Origin: a virus
Reading direction: 5' to 3' (one strand)
Virus record (IMG/VR): IMGVR_UViG_3300025875_000621
Location: 30,638 to 94,637 of that record
Length of the DNA stretch: 64,000 nt
This document shows positions 2,815-63,476 of this stretch, in pieces. Position 1 is the first letter of the stretch. Each line of letters opens with the position of its first letter. The notes beneath the pieces were generated by a model. It did no database searches. It saw only the letters and a list, made by a program, of their open reading frames with translations, and was not told the DNA's origin. The position numbers were made by a program, and so were the translations under genes.

Positions 2815-2864
2815 GGTCAGCTCCTCAGCTGGGGCGTGTCTGCTGTACACCGGGAGAGTACACG
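2812..2864 (-). promoter_or_regulatory. promoter-operator (GTACT-N7-TGTAC) plus extended RBS
   Basis: minus strand reads GTGTACTCTCCCGGTGTACA...CCAGCTGAGGAGCTGACCATG. Confidence 0.65.
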
Positions 2865-3316: not shown

Positions 3317-3371
3317 GCAGTGCGTACACTCCTGGTGTACGCACTGCAGACCAGCTGAGGAGCTGACCGTG
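3317..3371 (+). promoter_or_regulatory. promoter-operator palindrome plus extended RBS
   Basis: perfect inverted repeat GCAGTGCGTACAC-TCCTG-GTGTACGCACTGC containing a TACACT -10 hexamer, then CCAGCTGAGGAGCTGACCGTG. Confidence 0.75.
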
Positions 3372-3659
3372 ACCCAACCCAGCGTCCTGCTCACCGGACG
3401 GCCCATGTGGCACGCCGGCACCTGCCACATCTCCACGGACGGCGGCCAGACCGCCCTCTGCGGCATCACCCCGCAGGACCCCTCCACCACCACTGACCCC
3501 GGCTGCGGCACCTGCCTCCAGCTGGCGGAGGCCGCGGACTCCACCCCCCGGCCCGTGAACTGCCACTGCGGCCGCACCGTCTCCACCCTCCCGGGCGGGG
3601 ACGGCCTCCACTGCGCAGAGCACGACCTGCCCGTCAGCACCCCCCGGCGCACCCGGTGA
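3369..3659 (+). CDS. Cys-rich small hypothetical protein
   Basis: GTG after a strong RBS; CG/CxxC motifs; GTGA coupling to the next gene. Confidence 0.65.
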   Translation: MTQPSVLLTGRPMWHAGTCHISTDGGQTALCGITPQDPSTTTDPGCGTCLQLAEAADSTPRPVNCHCGRTVSTLPGGDGLHCAEHDLPVSTPRRTR

Positions 3660-8473: not shown

Positions 8474-8562
8474 CCCACCTGGCGGGCGCGCCACCGCGCC
8501 CGCCAGGCCCACCCACTGCACACTGCTGACGCACACCACCCCACCTGAGGAGACCCGCGCAC

Positions 8563-8907
8563 GTGATGAACACCCGCACCCGCCGCACCGCCACCGCCCT
8601 GGCCCTGGCCGGCGCCGTCATGGTCACCGGCGCTGGCTGCGCGAAACGGAACATCGACCCCGCCGCCACCGGCTCCGCCCGCGTGGAGGGCACCGGCGGA
8701 GAGCACGCCCTGCAGAAGTTCTGCGACGGGCCGACGCTCATCTACTGGACCCCCGGGTACTCCGGGGAGGAGGACGAGTACGAGGCGTTCATCTACGAGT
8801 CCCCCGCGTGCACGGATGACGGAGACCCGGCCACCATCCCCGCCGGGGTCGTGGGCGCCGGACCGCAGCAGCCCCGTGACGCGGGCGTGCAGGACGACGA
8901 CGAGTGA
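8563..8907 (+). CDS. predicted lipoprotein
   Basis: basic N-terminus, hydrophobic core, lipobox-like GAGC; CTGAGGAG RBS. Confidence 0.7.
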   Translation: MMNTRTRRTATALALAGAVMVTGAGCAKRNIDPAATGSARVEGTGGEHALQKFCDGPTLIYWTPGYSGEEDEYEAFIYESPACTDDGDPATIPAGVVGAGPQQPRDAGVQDDDE

Positions 8908-25899: not shown

Positions 25900-27339
25900 T
25901 CAGAGACCGCGGGAGACTTCCGCGGCCACCTGCAGCCACGCGTACCGGCTGCGCGGGCTCATCGCCTGGTAGTCGATGGGCCGGCCACCGGCCAGGGCCG
26001 CGTCCGGGGGCACCTCCACCACGGCGCGGGTGAGCTTCCCGAAGTGGGAGTGCACGCGGCGTGCCAGGTCCCGCTGCGCCCGGACCCGCTCACCGACGGC
26101 GGCGGCGGTCTCCGCGCGGACCAGGATGGTGACCGCGTTCCGCACCAGGTCCACCCGCCCGGCGTCCAGCAGCTGCTCCAGCATGAACGCGGCGTGGTCC
26201 ACCGTGTCCTCTCCCAGGGACATGGGGACCACCAGCTGGTGGGCGGCGCTGACCGCGGCCTGCCAGACGGGCGCGATGGAGGAGTTCCCGGTGTCCACGA
26301 TCACCAGGCGGTAGAAGCGGGACACCAGGCCGTGGACATGGCCGAACCCGTCCGCGTCCACGGCGTCCCGCAGGCTGGGGTCCTCCGTGGAGGCCAGGAC
26401 GTCGAAGTGCTGATCCCCCTGCGGGCGCACGTAGTTGTCCAGGTCCCCCATGCGCGCGTTCGGGCCGGTGAAGCGGGGCAGGTCCCGCAGCAGGTCCACC
26501 GCGGTGTTCTTCTGCTCCGGGTTGGCCATGGCCCGCAGTCCCAGCGTGCCCCTGTTCTCGTTGGCGTCCCAGGCCAGAACTCCGCCGCCGCGGTGCTGAC
26601 CCAGGGTGGCGGCCAGCGCCAGAACGGTGGTCGTCTTGGGCGCTCCGCCCTTCGGGTTCGCCACCACGATGGTGCGGGGCCCGTCGTAGGACCGCTGCAC
26701 GGTCTGGACGTTCCGCCTCCAGGTCATCTCTGCGCGGGAGGGGCTGGGCTTCACCAGGCCGCCGGTGCCGCGGCGGACGGCACCCTGCCAGCCCTGCTGC
26801 GCGTGCTCCGGGCGGCGGGGCGGCTGGGTGGCCTGCCAGTCCCGGTGGGTGGGGAGCGCGTCCGGGGCGGTCTCCGCGGGTGCCGGTGCCGGCTCCTCCT
26901 CCGGCGCGTGGCGGGGGCGGCCCACCAGGGGGTCCAGCTCCCCCAGCGTGGAGTGCCGGGTCCCCGGGGCCTGGTCACCGGCCCGCCAGACGGGCTCCTG
27001 GGGCAGCGGGTCTGTGCGAACTCGCACAGACCCGGCGGCCTCCGCCGTCCCCGGCCGGGCTGGGGGCTCCAGCCCGGCCTCCTCCACGCGGCCGTCCGGG
27101 TGCACGTACAGCACCCAGGCGCCGGCCGGGTCGTAGGTGTCCACGCGGACGGCGCGCTGCAGCTCCACGGCCACGTCCTTCACGTGGTCCAGGGCGCTGG
27201 TGCGGGCGGTGGCCACGTCCGGCGCTGCCACCGGGCGGTCCGGGCGGCCGGGCATGCTCACCTCACCGGTGCCGTCCTCCCGGACGGTGGCGGTGATGCG
27301 CGGCCAGGTGGGGATGGTGGCGGGGGTGGGCGTGGGCAT
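25900..27339 (-). CDS. MinD/ParA-like ATPase
   Basis: ANPKGGAPKTT, WDANENRGTL, IVDTGN; CTGAGGAGG RBS. Confidence 0.85.
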   Translation of the reverse strand: MPTPTPATIPTWPRITATVREDGTGEVSMPGRPDRPVAAPDVATARTSALDHVKDVAVELQRAVRVDTYDPAGAWVLYVHPDGRVEEAGLEPPARPGTAEAAGSVRVRTDPLPQEPVWRAGDQAPGTRHSTLGELDPLVGRPRHAPEEEPAPAPAETAPDALPTHRDWQATQPPRRPEHAQQGWQGAVRRGTGGLVKPSPSRAEMTWRRNVQTVQRSYDGPRTIVVANPKGGAPKTTTVLALAATLGQHRGGGVLAWDANENRGTLGLRAMANPEQKNTAVDLLRDLPRFTGPNARMGDLDNYVRPQGDQHFDVLASTEDPSLRDAVDADGFGHVHGLVSRFYRLVIVDTGNSSIAPVWQAAVSAAHQLVVPMSLGEDTVDHAAFMLEQLLDAGRVDLVRNAVTILVRAETAAAVGERVRAQRDLARRVHSHFGKLTRAVVEVPPDAALAGGRPIDYQAMSPRSRYAWLQVAAEVSRGL

Positions 27340-27368
27340 GGGGTCCTCCTCAGGTGGGGTGATGCGGG

Positions 27369-28487
27369 TCAGGTGAGCGGGACGCCGTGGGCGCGGAGCC
27401 ACGGCACGGGGTCTGTGAACTGGCCGTCCAGCTGCACCTCAAAGTGCAGGTGTGGGCCGGTGCTGTCTCCGTAGGAGCCGATGCGGGCGATCTGCTGGCC
27501 GGCCACCACGGGGTCTCCCACGCGGACCATGAGGTCCTGGGGGTACATGTGCGCGGAGCGGGTGAGGACCTGACGGCCCTGCTCATCCCGCCCGTGGTCC
27601 ACCACGATCAGGTTTCCGTAGCCGGTGGAGGGCCCGGACCGGATGACCACGCCGGGCCCGGCCGCGTAGATGGGCTGGCCCAGGCCGGGGGCTATGTCGA
27701 TGCCGTTGTGCATGGTGCCCCAGCGGGGCCCGTACGGGGACGTCATGCGGCCCACGGCGGGCAGGGTCCAGCCCTGCGAGGACGCCCCACCGGCGGGCGG
27801 CAGCGGCGGGTTCGCACCGCAGGGCAGAGCGCCGGCGCCGTCCACCACGGGGGTGGTGATGACCTGCGCTCCGGCCAGGGCGTTCACCACCTGCGTGGCG
27901 GGGCCCCAGTAGCGCGTGTAGTGGTTCGGGTCCGCGTTCCGCTGGACGCGGTGCGCGGCCATGGTGGGCGCCATGGTCTCCCAGCCCTGGACGCTGCGGA
28001 GGCCGGGCTGTCCGCCGCGGCCGCCGGTGAAGAACATGGTGGCGCTGCCGTAGGCGTCCAGGCGTACCTCCCGCGGTCCCCACGGGTCCCGCTGCTGGAA
28101 CCAGCCCAGGGAGTCCGGCCCGGCCAGGTCCCCGTGGTCCACCGCGGTCAGGGTGGACTCCCCCATGGAGACCATGACGCCGATGGTCTGGCCCTGGACG
28201 GAGAACCCGGCGTCCGCTCCGGCCTGGATGATCGCGGCTGCTCCCACCAGCTGGGCGCCGGAGTAGCCGGCCACGGAGCCGGTGGGCACGCCGGACACGG
28301 ACACGGAGACGCTACCGCCAGTGGCAGCGCAGGGGGTCTGCTGGTCCGCGTCATCCTGGGCCATGACGGTCAGGAAGATCAGCAGGAGGATCAGGAAAAA
28401 CACGGGGCTGGCCACCAGCATGGCGCCCAGGGCGGGGAGCGCGTACCGGGCCGCGGCGCTCCTGGTCACGCCTCCTGCGGTGCTCAC
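27369..28487 (-). CDS. M23 peptidase / conjugation cell-wall hydrolase
   Basis: N-terminal TM, MGES...DSLGWFQQR, HNGID, STGPHLHFEV. Confidence 0.9.
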   Translation of the reverse strand: MSTAGGVTRSAAARYALPALGAMLVASPVFFLILLLIFLTVMAQDDADQQTPCAATGGSVSVSVSGVPTGSVAGYSGAQLVGAAAIIQAGADAGFSVQGQTIGVMVSMGESTLTAVDHGDLAGPDSLGWFQQRDPWGPREVRLDAYGSATMFFTGGRGGQPGLRSVQGWETMAPTMAAHRVQRNADPNHYTRYWGPATQVVNALAGAQVITTPVVDGAGALPCGANPPLPPAGGASSQGWTLPAVGRMTSPYGPRWGTMHNGIDIAPGLGQPIYAAGPGVVIRSGPSTGYGNLIVVDHGRDEQGRQVLTRSAHMYPQDLMVRVGDPVVAGQQIARIGSYGDSTGPHLHFEVQLDGQFTDPVPWLRAHGVPLT

Positions 28488-29613: not shown

Positions 29614-29663
29614 CGTACATTCCTGGTGTACGTACACGCACCAGCTGAGGAGCTGAGACCATG
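29614..29663 (+). promoter_or_regulatory. promoter-operator plus extended RBS
   Basis: CGTACA-TTCCTGG-TGTACG then CCAGCTGAGGAGCTGAGACCATG. Confidence 0.7.
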
Positions 29664-29858
29664 AGCGCACCGCAGCGCACCGTGCGGGTGTCCCTGCTGG
29701 GAGGCCCCCTGGACGGGAAGGTGGCGGAGCCCGCCTCCCTGCCGGGGACGAAGGGCCTCCGCATCCGGGGGCAGGTGTACCGGCCCACCGGCCGGGTGGA
29801 CCGGGACGGGCGGCCCATCTACGCGCACGCCAGCGTGAACTGGCCTCCCCGGTCCTGA
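29661..29858 (+). CDS. small hypothetical protein
   Basis: LLGGPLDG motif; strong RBS; followed by a hairpin at 29878-29919. Confidence 0.7.
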   Translation: MSAPQRTVRVSLLGGPLDGKVAEPASLPGTKGLRIRGQVYRPTGRVDRDGRPIYAHASVNWPPRS

Positions 29859-49052: not shown

Positions 49053-49100
49053 GGTGCGTACACTCCCCATGTACGCACCCCACCTGAGGAGACCCCCATG
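49053..49100 (+). promoter_or_regulatory. promoter-operator plus CTGAGGAG RBS
   Basis: GGTGCGTACA-CTCCCCA-TGTACGCACC then CACCTGAGGAGACCCCCATG. Confidence 0.75.
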
Positions 49101-49739
49101 ACGTCAGCCATGCCACCGCGCCGGCCAGAGGAGGAGACCGCGGCCGCGTACCGCAGACTCTCCGCCCAGGGAGCGTGCTGCGGCCACACCCGCAGCGTGC
49201 ACGCACCGGACGGCTGCCGCGTCTGCCAGCTGCAGCCCCGCTCCACCACCCCGCTGTGCCCCGGCTGGCAGGCCCCGGATGAGCAGGACGCCCGGTACGC
49301 CCAGTACGCCCGCGGCGGCACCCCGGACCCCGGCCAGACCCAGGAGCAGGTGGGCTGCCCGGACAGCGCCCGCTGCCACTACGAGTGCCGGACTAACTGC
49401 TGGCGGGTCCTGAACGTGAGCCCCATGGCCGGGGTGTTCCAGGGGGACCGGTGGCCCGCTGGGATCACCGCCGCGCACAGCGTGGCCCGCGCGCACGGCC
49501 ACACCCCGCCGGATGACGGCGTGGTGGACGCGGAGGTGCTGGAGCCCTGGGCGTGGCTGGAGCAGGAGGACCCGGACCGCCTGGTGCCGCTGGCCGCCGT
49601 CCGGGCCGCCTTCATGGCGGGGCACGATGCCGGGACCAGCTGGACGGTGCCCGCGGAGGGAGAGGCCCAGGCGGAGCCGGACTGGCTGGCCTGGGGCCAG
49701 GAGCACGGCTACTACCCGGCCACCGGGGAGCTGTCGTGA
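49098..49739 (+). CDS. Cys-rich hypothetical protein
   Basis: CCGH..H..C..C; strong RBS. Confidence 0.65.
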   Translation: MTSAMPPRRPEEETAAAYRRLSAQGACCGHTRSVHAPDGCRVCQLQPRSTTPLCPGWQAPDEQDARYAQYARGGTPDPGQTQEQVGCPDSARCHYECRTNCWRVLNVSPMAGVFQGDRWPAGITAAHSVARAHGHTPPDDGVVDAEVLEPWAWLEQEDPDRLVPLAAVRAAFMAGHDAGTSWTVPAEGEAQAEPDWLAWGQEHGYYPATGELS

Positions 49740-50322: not shown

Positions 50323-50643
50323 GTGGCCGCCAGGCGCACGCCAGAGAAGCCGCCCGTGGGGCTGCCGGAGGTGGCCGCCATGTTCGGCGTGTCCGCCAAG
50401 ACGCCCGTGCGGTGGGGGTACCGCTCCCGGCTGGGTGAGATGCCCGTGCCGTTCCCGGAGCCGGACTTCACGATCAGCCGCGGCGTGCCCGGCTGGTACC
50501 GGTCCACCATCGACCGCTGGGCGCAGGAGAGCGGCCGCCCCATCGTGGCGGAGCCGCAGTACGTGCGCCGGGCCGGTGCGGAGGACGCTGTGGACAGCGC
50601 GGAGGAGACCCCGGAGGGTGCCCTGGTCACCGCGGGTAGCTGA
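50323..50643 (+). CDS. AlpA/Xis-like HTH DNA-binding protein
   Basis: VGLPEVAAMFGVS...FPEPD...W..STI.RWA; GAGGAGGAG RBS (alternative start 50254). Confidence 0.75.
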   Translation: MAARRTPEKPPVGLPEVAAMFGVSAKTPVRWGYRSRLGEMPVPFPEPDFTISRGVPGWYRSTIDRWAQESGRPIVAEPQYVRRAGAEDAVDSAEETPEGALVTAGS

Positions 50644-50782
50644 GGCCAGGGCGGTCCTCCCACCCGGGGGGCCGCCCTTCGGCGCGTGATCCGGCGGGTG
50701 CATAGAGTCACCTGCCTGCCCTAGACGTACTGCACCCCCGCACCGCTGGCAGGCGGCCGGGGGCATGGACTGAGGAGTCCCG

Positions 50783-50845
50783 ATGATCGTAGCGGCATGC
50801 CCTGACAGGAACCAGCGCGCTCACCCCATCGGGTGGTGCTGCTGA
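50783..50845 (+). CDS. putative 20-aa leader peptide coupled to rep
   Basis: CTGAGGAG RBS at 50770-50777; MIVAACPDRNQRAHPIGWCC; TGA directly abuts the rep GTG. Confidence 0.55.
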   Translation: MIVAACPDRNQRAHPIGWCC

Positions 50846-51811
50846 GTGGCCGTCCACTACACGGAGCGGGCGGCAGTGCTGCCGCTCCAGCCAGGTAAGA
50901 AGCTGGTGCTGATGTGCGTGGCGGACTCCGCCAACGCGGACAACCGGGTGGGGTTCCCCGGGTTCGATGCTCTCCAGAAGTGGTCCGGGCTGGCCCGCTC
51001 CACGGTGTACAAGGTGCTGGAGCAGCTGGTGGAGGACGGCTGGCTGGCGCGGTACGGCGCCGGCGGCCGCGGGAAGCGCGCGGAGTTCCTGGTGTTCCCG
51101 CACGGGGACTGCTGCCCTATGCACGGACCGCTCCCTGGCTACGCAGAGCGACGTCCGGGTGACCACTCCTCAGGGTCCAGCCCAGTGGACCCTGAGGAGG
51201 ACGGTGCAGATGGGGCGGAAACCTGTGCACAGACCCCTGTGGAAACTGTGGATACAGACCCTAAAGCTGAACTCCAGGGTCCACAGCAGGGTCCACCCCA
51301 GGGTGGACCCCTTCCCAGCTCCCCTACTAGGACTACTTCTAGGGGGTCTCTTACGGAAGTAGGGGCGGGGCCAGCTGTGGACAGCCCCCCTCCCTCATCC
51401 CCTCCAGCCGCCGGGGCTGCGCCCCTGGCGGAGACGGACCCGGAGCCCGGCTCCCGCTGCCACGTCCACCTGGTCTACCCCGCCACCGGCCCGTGCCAGG
51501 ACTGCGGGGACGCCCGACTGCGGCACCGGGCCTGGGAGGAGCGGCAGGTGCAGCGCCGGCGCGCGGCGGACGCCCAGGAGCGGGCCGCCGCCGCGGAGAC
51601 CCGCGCGCTGACCCGCGCCGCGGTGGCCGCCTGCCGCCTGTGCACCGCGCACGGCCGGGTGACGCTGGAGGGCGTCACCGTGGCCTGCCAGCACGACACG
51701 GCGCGGAACCTGCGCGCTGTGCGCTCTCGGGCGGAGGCGCGGCGCGCGGCTGGGCTGGACCAGGACCCGCCGGACGCTGAGGGTCCACCCGCGGAGACCG
51801 CCACCGGCTGA
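50846..51811 (+). CDS. replication initiator (N-terminal wHTH, C-terminal Cys cluster)
   Basis: KLVLMCVADSAN...FPG...L...SGL.RSTV...L..L...GW; CRLC..HG...CQH. Confidence 0.75.
   Translation: MAVHYTERAAVLPLQPGKKLVLMCVADSANADNRVGFPGFDALQKWSGLARSTVYKVLEQLVEDGWLARYGAGGRGKRAEFLVFPHGDCCPMHGPLPGYAERRPGDHSSGSSPVDPEEDGADGAETCAQTPVETVDTDPKAELQGPQQGPPQGGPLPSSPTRTTSRGSLTEVGAGPAVDSPPPSSPPAAGAAPLAETDPEPGSRCHVHLVYPATGPCQDCGDARLRHRAWEERQVQRRRAADAQERAAAAETRALTRAAVAACRLCTAHGRVTLEGVTVACQHDTARNLRAVRSRAEARRAAGLDQDPPDAEGPPAETATG
51171..51384. repeat. candidate replication origin within rep (iterons and DnaA-box-like motifs)
   Basis: CAGGGTCCA(C) at 51171, 51275, 51287 and inverted at 51185; TGTGGAAAC, TGTGGATAC, TGTGGACAG; AT-richer patch 51325-51361. 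Confidence 0.55.
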
Positions 51812-56858: not shown

Positions 56859-57362
56859 ATGGACACATGGCACCCCACTCCCCCACCTGCCGCTTTGCCT
56901 GTCCGTTACGCGGACCGCGTAGAAGTACAGGAGGACGGCTGCTGGTACTGGACGGGGACCGTGCTGGACAACGGGTACGGGCAGGTGAGCTACCAGGGCC
57001 GGCCGTGGCTGGTGCACCGGCTGGTCCGGACGCTCCTGGTCGGGCCCATTCCCGCCGGTCTCACGCTGGACCACCGATGCCACGACCGGACCTGCGTACC
57101 CCGCGGTCCGGTCTGTCAGCACCGGCGCTGCTGCAACCCCGCCCACACGGAGCACAGCACGCGTGGGAAGAACTCCGCCCGCCACCACCGGGAGAAGGAG
57201 AAGTGCCCGGCGGGGCACATGTACGACCGGACGGACCGGCGGGGTTGGCGCAGTTGCAGCACGTGTGCCAACACCCGGAAGCGGAAGCGCAGAGCCGGTG
57301 GTGAGCTGGACGTTCGCCGCGGGGGCGGAGGTGGTCCGGGGCAGGTCTCACGGGTTCTGTGA
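56859..57362 (+). CDS. HNH homing-type endonuclease
   Basis: CWYWTG...NGYG...VHR...GPIP.G..LDH.C...CCNPAH; CPAGH...CSTC. Confidence 0.85.
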   Translation: MDTWHPTPPPAALPVRYADRVEVQEDGCWYWTGTVLDNGYGQVSYQGRPWLVHRLVRTLLVGPIPAGLTLDHRCHDRTCVPRGPVCQHRRCCNPAHTEHSTRGKNSARHHREKEKCPAGHMYDRTDRRGWRSCSTCANTRKRKRRAGGELDVRRGGGGGPGQVSRVL

Positions 57363-57699
57363 AATCTGTGGTAGCCGGAAGGGGCAGGCCGTCCAGACTC
57401 ATCACCGGCAGCCGCGCGGCATGGGCGGGGTGTCCGGCGTGGGCTTGGCCGTGAACGCCCCGTCCGCCCTGCTGCGCGTCTGCCTGGACTGTCACGGCTG
57501 GCTGGAGACCCAGGAGCGCGGCGCCGCCCGGGACGCCGGGCTGCTGGTTCCCCGGCCGCTGGTCCCCGCGGAGACCCCGGTGTACCTGACGCCCATCTAC
57601 GGGCCGGGCTGGTACACGCTGGACGATGAGGGCTCCTACGCCTGGTGGCACGGCGAGACCCCGGCCGTACCACGGCAGCTGCTGCTCCACCTCATGTAG
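57301..57699 (+). CDS. HNH nuclease (McrA-like fold)
   Basis: RS.G.CEICG...HHRQPRGMGG...VCLDCHG. Confidence 0.75.
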   Translation: MSWTFAAGAEVVRGRSHGFCEICGSRKGQAVQTHHRQPRGMGGVSGVGLAVNAPSALLRVCLDCHGWLETQERGAARDAGLLVPRPLVPAETPVYLTPIYGPGWYTLDDEGSYAWWHGETPAVPRQLLLHLM

Positions 57700-57725
57700 C
57701 AGGCCCCACCCGCGTATCCTGGTCT

Positions 57726-57780
57726 CAGCAGGGGCTCCGCGCGTGCAACCTCCTCAGCTGGGCGCGCGGGGCCCCTGCTG
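57726..57780 (+). ncRNA. candidate antisense hairpin sRNA targeting the CCAGCUGAGGAG RBS
   Basis: TATCCT -10 at 57715-57720; 19-bp stem with two G-U pairs; loop GCAACCUCCUCAGCUGG. Confidence 0.6.
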
Positions 57781-57825
57781 CATGCCCGGCCCGTCCACTC
57801 TCAGTGCACGCGACGGCGCGGACCC

Positions 57826-57876
57826 GCGTACACTGTCCGTGCACGCACACCCCAGCCAGCTGAGGAGCTGACCGTG
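57826..57876 (+). promoter_or_regulatory. promoter-operator plus extended RBS
   Basis: GCGTACA-CTGTCCG-TGCACGC then CCAGCTGAGGAGCTGACCGTG. Confidence 0.7.
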
Positions 57877-58290
57877 ACCCAGAGTCCGCAGACGCCCGCG
57901 GAGCGCATCGCCTCCGCCCAGACCGTCACCACCCCCACGCCCATCCCGGCCGGTCCCCACGTGGAGGCCATGGCCGCGCAGGAGGCGCTGGAGGCCGCAC
58001 GCGCGGACTTCCGTGCACGCCTGGCCGCGGCCGCCCAGAAGGTGGTCAGCGTGGACGGCACGGTGAACGCCGGGCTGATGGTGGGCGGGACGTGGCTGTA
58101 CGACCGCTGGCGGTACCACGCCGGGGTGGGCGCCTGGCTGTCCCCCGGCGGGCTCATCGTCTACTCGGAGGACGTGCAGGCGCGCATGGCCATGCCCAGC
58201 GAGGCGGTGAAGCTGTACGCCTTCCTCCTGGAGGAGGGGGACGCGGCGGTGGCCGCGGAGCTGGCCGCCCAGAAGCCCACCACCCCGTAG
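57874..58290 (+). CDS. hypothetical protein
   Basis: GTG after the extended RBS. Confidence 0.7.
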   Translation: MTQSPQTPAERIASAQTVTTPTPIPAGPHVEAMAAQEALEAARADFRARLAAAAQKVVSVDGTVNAGLMVGGTWLYDRWRYHAGVGAWLSPGGLIVYSEDVQARMAMPSEAVKLYAFLLEEGDAAVAAELAAQKPTTP

Positions 58291-59659: not shown

Positions 59660-59898
59660 GACCAGCCCCAGCCACCACGCACCTGCCCGCGCACGTGCCC
59701 GCCAGCGCGCAGCGCATCCCCACCCGGGAGCTGGCCGCGCAGCAGCCAGCCGCCCCCGTCCCGCCCACGCAGCCCCTGCGCCGCGTCTGCGGGCAGACCG
59801 CCGCCAGCGGGGAGCCGTGCATGCTGCTCCACCCGCACTGGGGCAGCTACCACCTGCCGGTCCCCCGGCGCCGCCCCCTCCAGGTGCGCGGCCAGTGA
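59656..59898 (+). CDS. small hypothetical protein
   Basis: CTGAGGAG RBS; CG...C...H...H. Confidence 0.55.
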   Translation: MRPAPATTHLPAHVPASAQRIPTRELAAQQPAAPVPPTQPLRRVCGQTAASGEPCMLLHPHWGSYHLPVPRRRPLQVRGQ

Positions 59899-60170
59899 GC
59901 GGCCAGCACGCAGCGCCCCCGCCCCACCCCGGGCACCGGCCCGTGCAGCATCGAGACGGACGCCCCCCGTGGTGCCGGGAGTGCGGCCTGGACGCCACCG
60001 GCCGCGCCCCGGCGTCCCGCCTGCCCGGCCAGCGCCCGCCCACGGCCGCCAGCCAGCCCGTGACCGCGGACGCCGTGGTCACCACCGGGGACGCCGCACC
60101 CCGCGTCCCACCCGTCACGTTCCTGGAGCCACCCCCGGCTCCGCAGCCCCCTGAGGAGGACACCCCGTGA
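59895..60170 (+). CDS. small hypothetical protein
   Basis: GTGA coupling; WCRECG. Confidence 0.5.
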   Translation: MSGQHAAPPPHPGHRPVQHRDGRPPWCRECGLDATGRAPASRLPGQRPPTAASQPVTADAVVTTGDAAPRVPPVTFLEPPPAPQPPEEDTP

Positions 60171-62930: not shown

Positions 62931-63476
62931 GTGGCAGAACCGTGGGAGCGCCTGGTAGGCGAGGGCACCAAGCGGTTCGAAGCGTTCGCCAAGTACCGGG
63001 ACATGGGCCCGGAACGCAGTCTGGCGAAGGTGGCGCAGGCGTTGGGCAAGACCACCAGTCTCATGGAGCGGTGGTCCGCGGAGGATTCCTGGGTCCACCG
63101 GGTCACCGCGTGGGATGAGGAGCAGGACCGCATCTGGCGGGGCCAGCAGGTCTCCTACCGCCGGGAGGTGGGCCGCCGTCAGCTCCGGATCGCGAACGCC
63201 ATGCAGGGCCAGCTGGTGAACCGGCTGGCGGAGCTGGACGTGTCCACCCTGGGCCCGGCTGACCTGGCCCGGTGGCTGGAGGTCACGTCGAAGGTGCAGC
63301 GGCAGGCCCTGGGCCAGGGGGACCGCACGGAGCTGACCGGGGCGGACGGTGGCCCCGTCCAGCTGGAGGCCCTGTCCCCGGACCAGGCGCGTGCCCGGCT
63401 GCGGGACCTGGCCGCGGAGATAGCGCGGCGCACGCAGGCGGACCCGGACGCCGTGCCCCTGGCCGGTGCCCTGTGA
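62931..63476 (+). CDS. terminase small subunit-like protein
   Basis: PWER..GE....FEAF..YRDMG..RSL.KVA..LGK....ERWS....W..R..AWD; C-terminal ELTGADGGPVQ. Confidence 0.7.
   Translation: MAEPWERLVGEGTKRFEAFAKYRDMGPERSLAKVAQALGKTTSLMERWSAEDSWVHRVTAWDEEQDRIWRGQQVSYRREVGRRQLRIANAMQGQLVNRLAELDVSTLGPADLARWLEVTSKVQRQALGQGDRTELTGADGGPVQLEALSPDQARARLRDLAAEIARRTQADPDAVPLAGAL

Follow-up and report, generated by a model that had tools for sequence, protein, structure and literature searches.

Can a single hairpin that carries in its loop the complement of a ribosome-binding site (RBS) hold down a whole set of dispersed phage genes? This question is raised by a locus in the genome of an uncultured actinobacterial phage, whose record comprises 94,637 bp at 74% G+C. 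The stretch of DNA analysed here (the window, 64,000 nucleotides) corresponds to bases 30638-94637 of that record, and coordinates refer to the window unless another genome is named. It encodes a major head protein, a RecT/exonuclease pair, RusA, a WhiB-like protein, two HNH endonucleases and the small terminase (62931-63476), while the large terminase, portal and MuF/protease genes lie in the part of the record ahead of the window. The closest cultured relatives are Microbacterium phages of ~95 kb with a capsid identity of only ~50%; a RecT homologue with 81% identity (P0002) comes from a closer relative. A minus-strand block, 25900-28469 (-), separates the early genes from the capsid gene and includes a ParA/VirD4-like ATPase match (PHROG) and an M23-type peptidase. 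A blastn search of the hairpin region against GenBank phages returned zero matches. The elements of the locus are as follows.

56859-57362: second HNH endonuclease gene
57421..57699, plus strand: HNH endonuclease gene, with its stop codon 27 nt 5' of the hairpin
57715..57720, plus strand: TATCCT, a -10-like hexamer (TANNNT) 5 nt 5' of the stem and putative promoter element
57726..57780, plus strand: hairpin with a 19-bp stem (57726-57744 with 57762-57780) and a 17-nt loop
57745-57761, plus strand: hairpin loop, GCAACCTCCTCAGCTGG
57750..57761, minus strand: the sole antisense copy in the genome of the tag CCAGCTGAGGAG, inside the hairpin loop
57829..57834, plus strand: TACACT, a -10-like hexamer within a GTGCAC/GTACAC inverted repeat
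57857-57870, plus strand: mini-hairpin CAGCU[GAGG]AGCUG, formed by the tag of gene 57874
57874..58290, plus strand: ORFan of 138 aa, the first gene 3' of the hairpin

The hexamer, stem and loop had been placed at these coordinates by the initial annotation, and on re-examination all of them hold. Its assignment of the structure to the plus strand was supported, as the stem contains two G-U pairs that are possible on that strand only, the minus strand having C-A mismatches at the same places. The plus-strand fold reaches -51.7 kcal/mol (z -5.3, with 0/200 shuffles equally good) and the minus-strand fold -49.1 kcal/mol. Within the 17-nt loop an inner CA/UG closure is available, leaving an 11-nt open loop, ACCUCCUCAGC.

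A simple terminator had been named at the outset as the alternative to a regulatory RNA. When the hairpin was compared with the criteria for intrinsic terminators, its GC-rich stem was found to fit, but it lacks both a short loop (3-8 nt) and a T-run 3' of the stem, and a terminator scan reported none at this site. Among ~50 plus-strand hairpins of the genome with stems of at least 11 bp, those that are clearly intergenic and terminator-like have loops of 4-7 nt, and the longest stem with a large loop is the one at 57726-57780, whose loop is 2-4 times longer than those of the other intergenic hairpins. Because the T-run is absent and the loop is oversized, the hairpin is not a textbook terminator. 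Searches with Rfam gave no family (the window at the gathering score, 57650-57900 up to E 10), no tRNA or tmRNA was found, and a sigma-70 consensus scan gave no promoter match at TATCCT. Two other identities for the region were considered and rejected. Coding potential over the hairpin was dismissed since codon-position GC carries no signal there, and the loop copy is not the RBS of a minus-strand gene, for the TTG 1 nt past GAGGAG opens a frame of 7 codons that is not conserved in a related phage.

The significance of the loop lies in what it matches. Across the record there are eight exact sense copies of CCAGCTGAGGAG, every one of them 5-11 nt ahead of a start codon, together with four copies bearing one mismatch. 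Each sense copy lies on the strand of its own gene, and the sole copy away from a gene start is the antisense one in the loop. In the window the exact sense copies number four and are spaced 6-9 nt from their start codons. They belong to the genes starting at 2814 (-), 3369, 29661 and 57874, for which a perfect 12-nt complement between loop and RBS had been reported correctly. The tags of the window are listed below.

2821..2832, minus strand: exact tag of the minus-strand gene 2584-2814
3351..3362, plus strand: exact tag of gene 3369-3659
29641..29652, plus strand: exact tag of gene 29661-29858
57856..57867, plus strand: exact tag of gene 57874-58290, 106 nt 3' of the loop copy
8541..8552, plus strand: one-mismatch tag CCACCTGAGGAG of gene 8563-8907
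27346..27357, minus strand: one-mismatch tag of gene 25900-27339 (-), which has a ParA-like PHROG family match
49080..49091, plus strand: one-mismatch tag of gene 49098-49739

Under a first-order Markov model, 0.025 sense and 0.016 antisense copies would be expected by chance. When one mismatch was allowed, the 12-mer had eight matches in the window against 1.03 expected, a number reached in 0/100 shuffles, and its core 8-mer CTGAGGAG occurred 16 times against 3.3 expected. The further RBS matches of 8-10 nt that the initial annotation had listed are all found among these 16 copies, although what they share amounts to little more than CTG plus the SD core. In every sense copy the GAGGAG of the tag ends 5-11 nt 5' of an ATG or GTG. 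The duplex between the loop and the tag at 57856-57867 was calculated at -24.2 kcal/mol, and when the loop was paired with 156 translation-initiation regions (median -14.2 kcal/mol), nine formed a separate class at or below -23.8 kcal/mol.

The tag is usually followed by CTG, which completes the sequence CAGCT-GAGG-AGCTG and allows it to fold as a mini-hairpin with the SD core in the tetraloop. This mini-hairpin explains why tag bases that are not complementary to the large loop are nevertheless conserved, and, as judged from the predicted fold, such an arrangement would suit loop-loop nucleation. A palindrome of the form GTACAC-N5-GTGTAC, holding TACACT, stands 5' of five tags in the window (2821 (-), 3351, 29641, 49080 and 57856). 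In the case of gene 57874, the TACACT repeat is, from its sequence, the probable promoter/operator of that gene. The genes with exact tags are small ORFans that matched nothing in Pfam or PHROG; family searches assigned the 138-aa product of gene 57874 to no family, and it had no homologue in viral contigs. Because the exact-tag genes are ORFans of this kind, the proposal that the tag defines a regulon of early, replication and tra-linked genes is not established, and the accompanying suggestion of RNA-based immunity likewise found no support.

Elsewhere in the window, a large non-coding gap ahead of RecT (50643-51548) contains a perfect 14-bp palindrome with a 6-nt loop at 51166-51199 (CTCCTCAGGGTCCA / TGGACCCTGAGGAG). 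Its 3' arm on the plus strand is an RBS of the CTGAGGAG type, 10 nt 5' of an ATG (51210), and to judge from its sequence this element resembles a hairpin that would sequester the SD in cis.

Two contigs with many copies, both from one sample, came up when IMG/VR was scanned for the tag. The first, G008 (87.2 kb), has 61 of 156 proteins in common with the phage described here, with 65-77% nucleotide identity in shared genes. It carries 14 sense tags, all on the gene strand, and exactly one antisense copy, which again lies in a hairpin loop at a syntenic position between the homologues of window genes 54822 and 58728 (RusA). In this comparison, which involves one pair of genomes sharing ancestry, the 16-nt loop CAACCTCCTCAGCTGG is identical (16/16) in both hairpins whereas the stems differ, being CAGCAGGGGCTCCGCGCGT in this phage versus GGGGCCCC/CGCGT with bulges in G008. 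Outside the loop and the downstream RBS blocks, identity in the intergenic alignment falls to 43% of columns, and the genes that flank the hairpin on both sides are unrelated between the two phages. Of the relatives in which loop and RBS were to be compared, G008 keeps both the tag and the loop despite divergence of stem and flanks. In each phage the loop is followed by a perfect sense tag, at 106 nt here and at 111 nt in G008. The G-U pairs that fit the gene strand only number two here and one in G008. The initial claim of a -10 element also fits both genomes, insofar as a -10-like TANNNT hexamer stands at the right distance in each (TACCAT 7 nt 5' of the hairpin in G008 versus TATCCT 5 nt here).

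The second contig, G010, is a 50-kb fragment that covers other parts of the genome than the hairpin region. It has 5-8 tags, and the one copy in "reverse" orientation serves a divergent gene as its RBS. The GTACAC-N5-GTGTAC block is also present ahead of several G010 tags and is absent from G008. Scans with 14-mer and 18-mer versions of the tag found multiple copies in G008 and G010 only, and the tag is absent from the capsid relatives G001-G005. When the exact loop 16-mer was searched in viral, metagenome and genome collections, G008 alone among the matches listed had it in a hairpin, the other ~250 being chance or coding matches. A pattern search combining loop and stem retrieved one chance RBS in an unrelated provirus, and inspection of 80 RecT loci and 8 TerS loci for tag/anti-tag pairs yielded nothing convincing.

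Two features were noted close to the paired hairpins. A box, CGTCCACTC, is conserved at 57792..57800 (+) and in G008 (G8rc ~84320) within otherwise diverged sequence; its TCCACT core lies exactly 29 nt 5' of a TANNNT hexamer in both phages (TACACT and TAGGGT), and a regulator of the post-hairpin gene's promoter may bind at this box. In G008 a second hairpin, with a 13-bp stem and a 13-nt loop containing TACCAT, is located just 5' of the first at 2911-2990 (G8rc 84209-84290). Its 3' arm doubles as the 5' arm of the anti-RBS hairpin, so that a read-through transcript could form only one of the two structures at a time; this phage has no counterpart of the second hairpin.

From these data we lean, on balance, towards a plus-strand RNA whose loop would mask the tagged ribosome sites in trans. 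Transcription of the plus strand across 57726-57780, started from TATCCT, would produce a hairpin RNA of ~55-65 nt; in an alternative form, the hairpin would be the 5' end of a transcript running into gene 57874. The very stable stem would keep a loop of 11-17 nt open, and that loop is the exact complement of CCAGCUGAGGAG, which comprises the SD core plus six upstream bases. On the target side, the tag would show GAGG in the loop of its mini-hairpin, where the CCUC of the large loop could nucleate, and pairing would then spread to 12 bp (~-24 kcal/mol). A duplex of this kind would cover the ribosome-binding site and so reduce translation of all tagged genes together, leaving host genes and untagged phage genes alone. 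The loop contains ACCUCCU, the core of the 16S anti-SD, and would therefore act as an anti-SD mimic that is made specific by six extra bases. There is a physical cost to this reading, as 12 bp cannot be accommodated in a closed 17-nt loop without strain or partial opening of the stem.

Masking could instead be confined to cis. Here the hairpin would sit in the leader or read-through transcript of gene 57874 and act on that RBS only, the other tags being conserved for other reasons. The perfect sense tag 106 nt (here) or 111 nt (G008) 3' of the loop fits this and is present even though the downstream genes are unrelated, and P1 c4 is likewise located upstream of its target in the same operon (PMC12197685). 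However, gene 57874 seemingly has its own TACACT promoter 3' of the hairpin, so that the main 57874 mRNA would be without the hairpin, which favours action in trans over pure masking in cis. Moreover, the loop corresponds to the consensus of 8-14 dispersed genes and to no local variant, and in the K1 phages described below no start-associated sequence follows the hairpin. We regard an effect restricted to cis as unlikely.

We judge it very unlikely that the element is purely structural, that is, a terminator, RNase III site or 5' stabiliser of the HNH/57874 transcripts with a loop that is an accident or the remnant of an inverted RBS cassette. It is true that a terminator or processing site would be expected at just this point, directly behind the HNH stop codon and ahead of a promoter, that a perfect stem of 19-20 bp resembles RNase III substrates, and that actinobacterial terminators often lack U-tails. 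Set against this are the missing T-run and the outsized loop, the low chance expectation for an antisense copy, and a loop that is identical in G008 while stem and flanks diverge. Highly improbable, too, is an account centred on a protein, in which a phage regulator that recognises DNA or RNA would bind the 12-mer, with the loop copy an extra site, or a decoy if the minus strand is transcribed. The palindrome CAGCTG and the inverted repeat CAGCT-N4-AGCTG in the tag, its conserved AGCTG bases that do not pair with the loop, and the precedent of the L5 stoperators (PMC9262239) speak for it. Against it, the constant distance between tag and start codon indicates a role in translation, the complement of the tag would go unrecognised by an RNA-binding protein, a decoy on the minus strand is at odds with the G-U pairs, and a conserved stem suits a displayed single-stranded loop and not a duplex site.

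Trans masking by a phage hairpin can be set beside several known systems. The closest characterised RNA mechanism is that of the C4 RNA of P1 (PMC12197685), the analogy drawn in the initial annotation, and it stands as an analogy of mechanism; the hairpin is not a member of the C4 family, and the Rfam covariance model for C4 matched neither the window nor 57650-57900. In the immI operon of P1/P7, C4 is a structured phage RNA with loops that pair with the ribosome-binding region of a nearby downstream gene and block its translation (PMC12197685). The present loop is likewise complementary to the RBS region of the next gene (57856-57867), with 12/12 matches, and no antirepressor was recognised 3' of the hairpin, where the 138-aa protein without a family is encoded. 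C4 has a single target operon, pairs through two short loop segments and is excised by RNase P. In contrast, one loop here matches a tag common to about a dozen dispersed genes.

Staphylococcal RsaE and actinobacterial 6C RNA are trans-acting host sRNAs whose C-rich loops pair with SD regions. They resemble the present hairpin in displaying a CCUCC-type loop on a stable stem as an anti-SD mimic for several mRNAs; unlike it, they use short seeds on an ordinary SD, whereas here a 12-nt match extends into a phage-private SD extension, and no Rfam match was obtained. The stoperators of L5-type Cluster A mycobacteriophages are dispersed, asymmetric 13-nt DNA sites bound by repressor (PMC9262239). 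Like the tag, they occupy short gaps between genes and share one orientation with respect to transcription, but they are not tied to RBSs and have no antisense copy in a hairpin.

The closest published analogue, which the initial annotation did not name, is the SAS/ESAS system of Cluster K phages. Cluster K mycobacteriophages carry start-associated sequences (SAS), and in K1 phages there is a single reverse-oriented copy that is not at a gene start; the authors left open whether the partner of SAS is "RNA or protein" (PMC3203893), which is also compatible with a protein ligand for the tag described here. SAS are found in Cluster EF Microbacterium phages as well (PMC7302621), and their role was still given as "not known" in 2024 (PMC11373665) and 2025 (PMC12699233). 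Microbacterium phage Hendrix has no SAS. Both systems consist of a 12-13 nt asymmetric motif that holds the SD core, is present in 8-19 copies per genome a few nt 5' of start codons in one orientation, and is conserved beyond what pairs with 16S. Both have an outer inverted symmetry (GGG..CCC in SAS, CAGCT..AGCTG here) and a subset of copies 3' of an inverted repeat with a promoter (ESAS in Cluster K, GTACAC-N5-GTGTAC here). By copy number, RBS position with SD core, single orientation and this promoter-linked subset, the tag falls into the functional class of SAS. The motifs themselves are unrelated (GGGATAGGAGCCC versus CCAGCTGAGGAG), as are the phages by nucleotide sequence, and the K copies are confined to the early right arm whereas those described here are dispersed. 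Since CCAGCTGAGGAG has no homology to GGGATAGGAGCCC or GGGAAAGGACCCC, the tag is an analogue of SAS and not a homologue.

The likeness extends to the reverse copy, which published SAS work has not linked to a hairpin. We found the reverse SAS of K1 phages in a 10-nt loop, CCUCCUAUCC, that belongs to a hairpin of ~19 bp, so that in K1 phages, as here, a single reverse copy away from gene starts occupies a hairpin loop. The K1 hairpin sites include the following.

Gap between gp96 and gp97 in Anaya: anti-SAS hairpin
Gap between gp92 and gp93 in Adephagia: anti-SAS hairpin

This hairpin is kept in eight of the K phages examined (Anaya, Adephagia, Angelica, Validus, Murucutumbu, Niklas, SgtBeansprout and Nikao). 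An alignment of nine K sequences has 94% of its cells paired; three pairs vary on both sides, several G-U pairs fit the plus strand only, and the shuffle control is exceeded only to a moderate degree. No SAS lies 3' of the hairpin in K1 phages. The hairpin described here is ~5 kb 5' of the small terminase gene, a position comparable to that of the K hairpin.

The wider gap was aligned in 16 Cluster K phages, where it is a conserved multi-hairpin non-coding region (Anaya 59769-59959, gp96-97 gap). Its elements are, in order, TAGACT (-10-like), a strongly covarying first hairpin (GGCCCCGGCG...GGGGCC) and, in K1, the hairpin with the anti-SAS loop; in Amohnition the corresponding loop, CCCUCCUUCCCC, is a plain anti-SD mimic.

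Subclusters other than K1 keep the hairpin without the anti-SAS loop, suggesting that the hairpin is an optional addition to SAS. SAS-like tags were also noted in capsid-related contigs: G002 and G001 have their own, (T/C)CGTGGAGGAGAC, in ~10 copies, and in G003 a tag GACAAGGGAGA occurs on both gene strands 3' of a TTGAC...TAGTCT promoter-like block. No antisense hairpin copy of the respective tag was detected in G002 or G003, and together with the non-K1 K phages these genomes suggest that such a tag works without the hairpin. Late transcripts of Adephagia begin between genes 92 and 93, which is the hairpin gap (PMC11373665). Their leader may therefore carry the anti-SAS loop and turn off the early genes that bear SAS. 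Extending this, we suggest, tentatively and as a possibility, that a private RBS tag with its anti-tag hairpin is a switch that evolved repeatedly in actinobacterial phages and could explain SAS, an anti-tag on late or middle transcripts shutting off early genes.

Looking forward, classical antisense RNAs mask one ribosome-binding site, and a tag/anti-tag pair of the kind proposed here could serve as an orthogonal translational switch in high-GC hosts. If the reading in trans is true, these phages would possess a compact form of post-transcriptional control over many unlinked genes that leaves host messages untouched. Because Cluster K phages have the same layout, the old puzzle of SAS becomes testable, and the hairpin would offer a concrete function for sequences whose annotation, since 2011, extends over hundreds of Cluster K and EF genomes.
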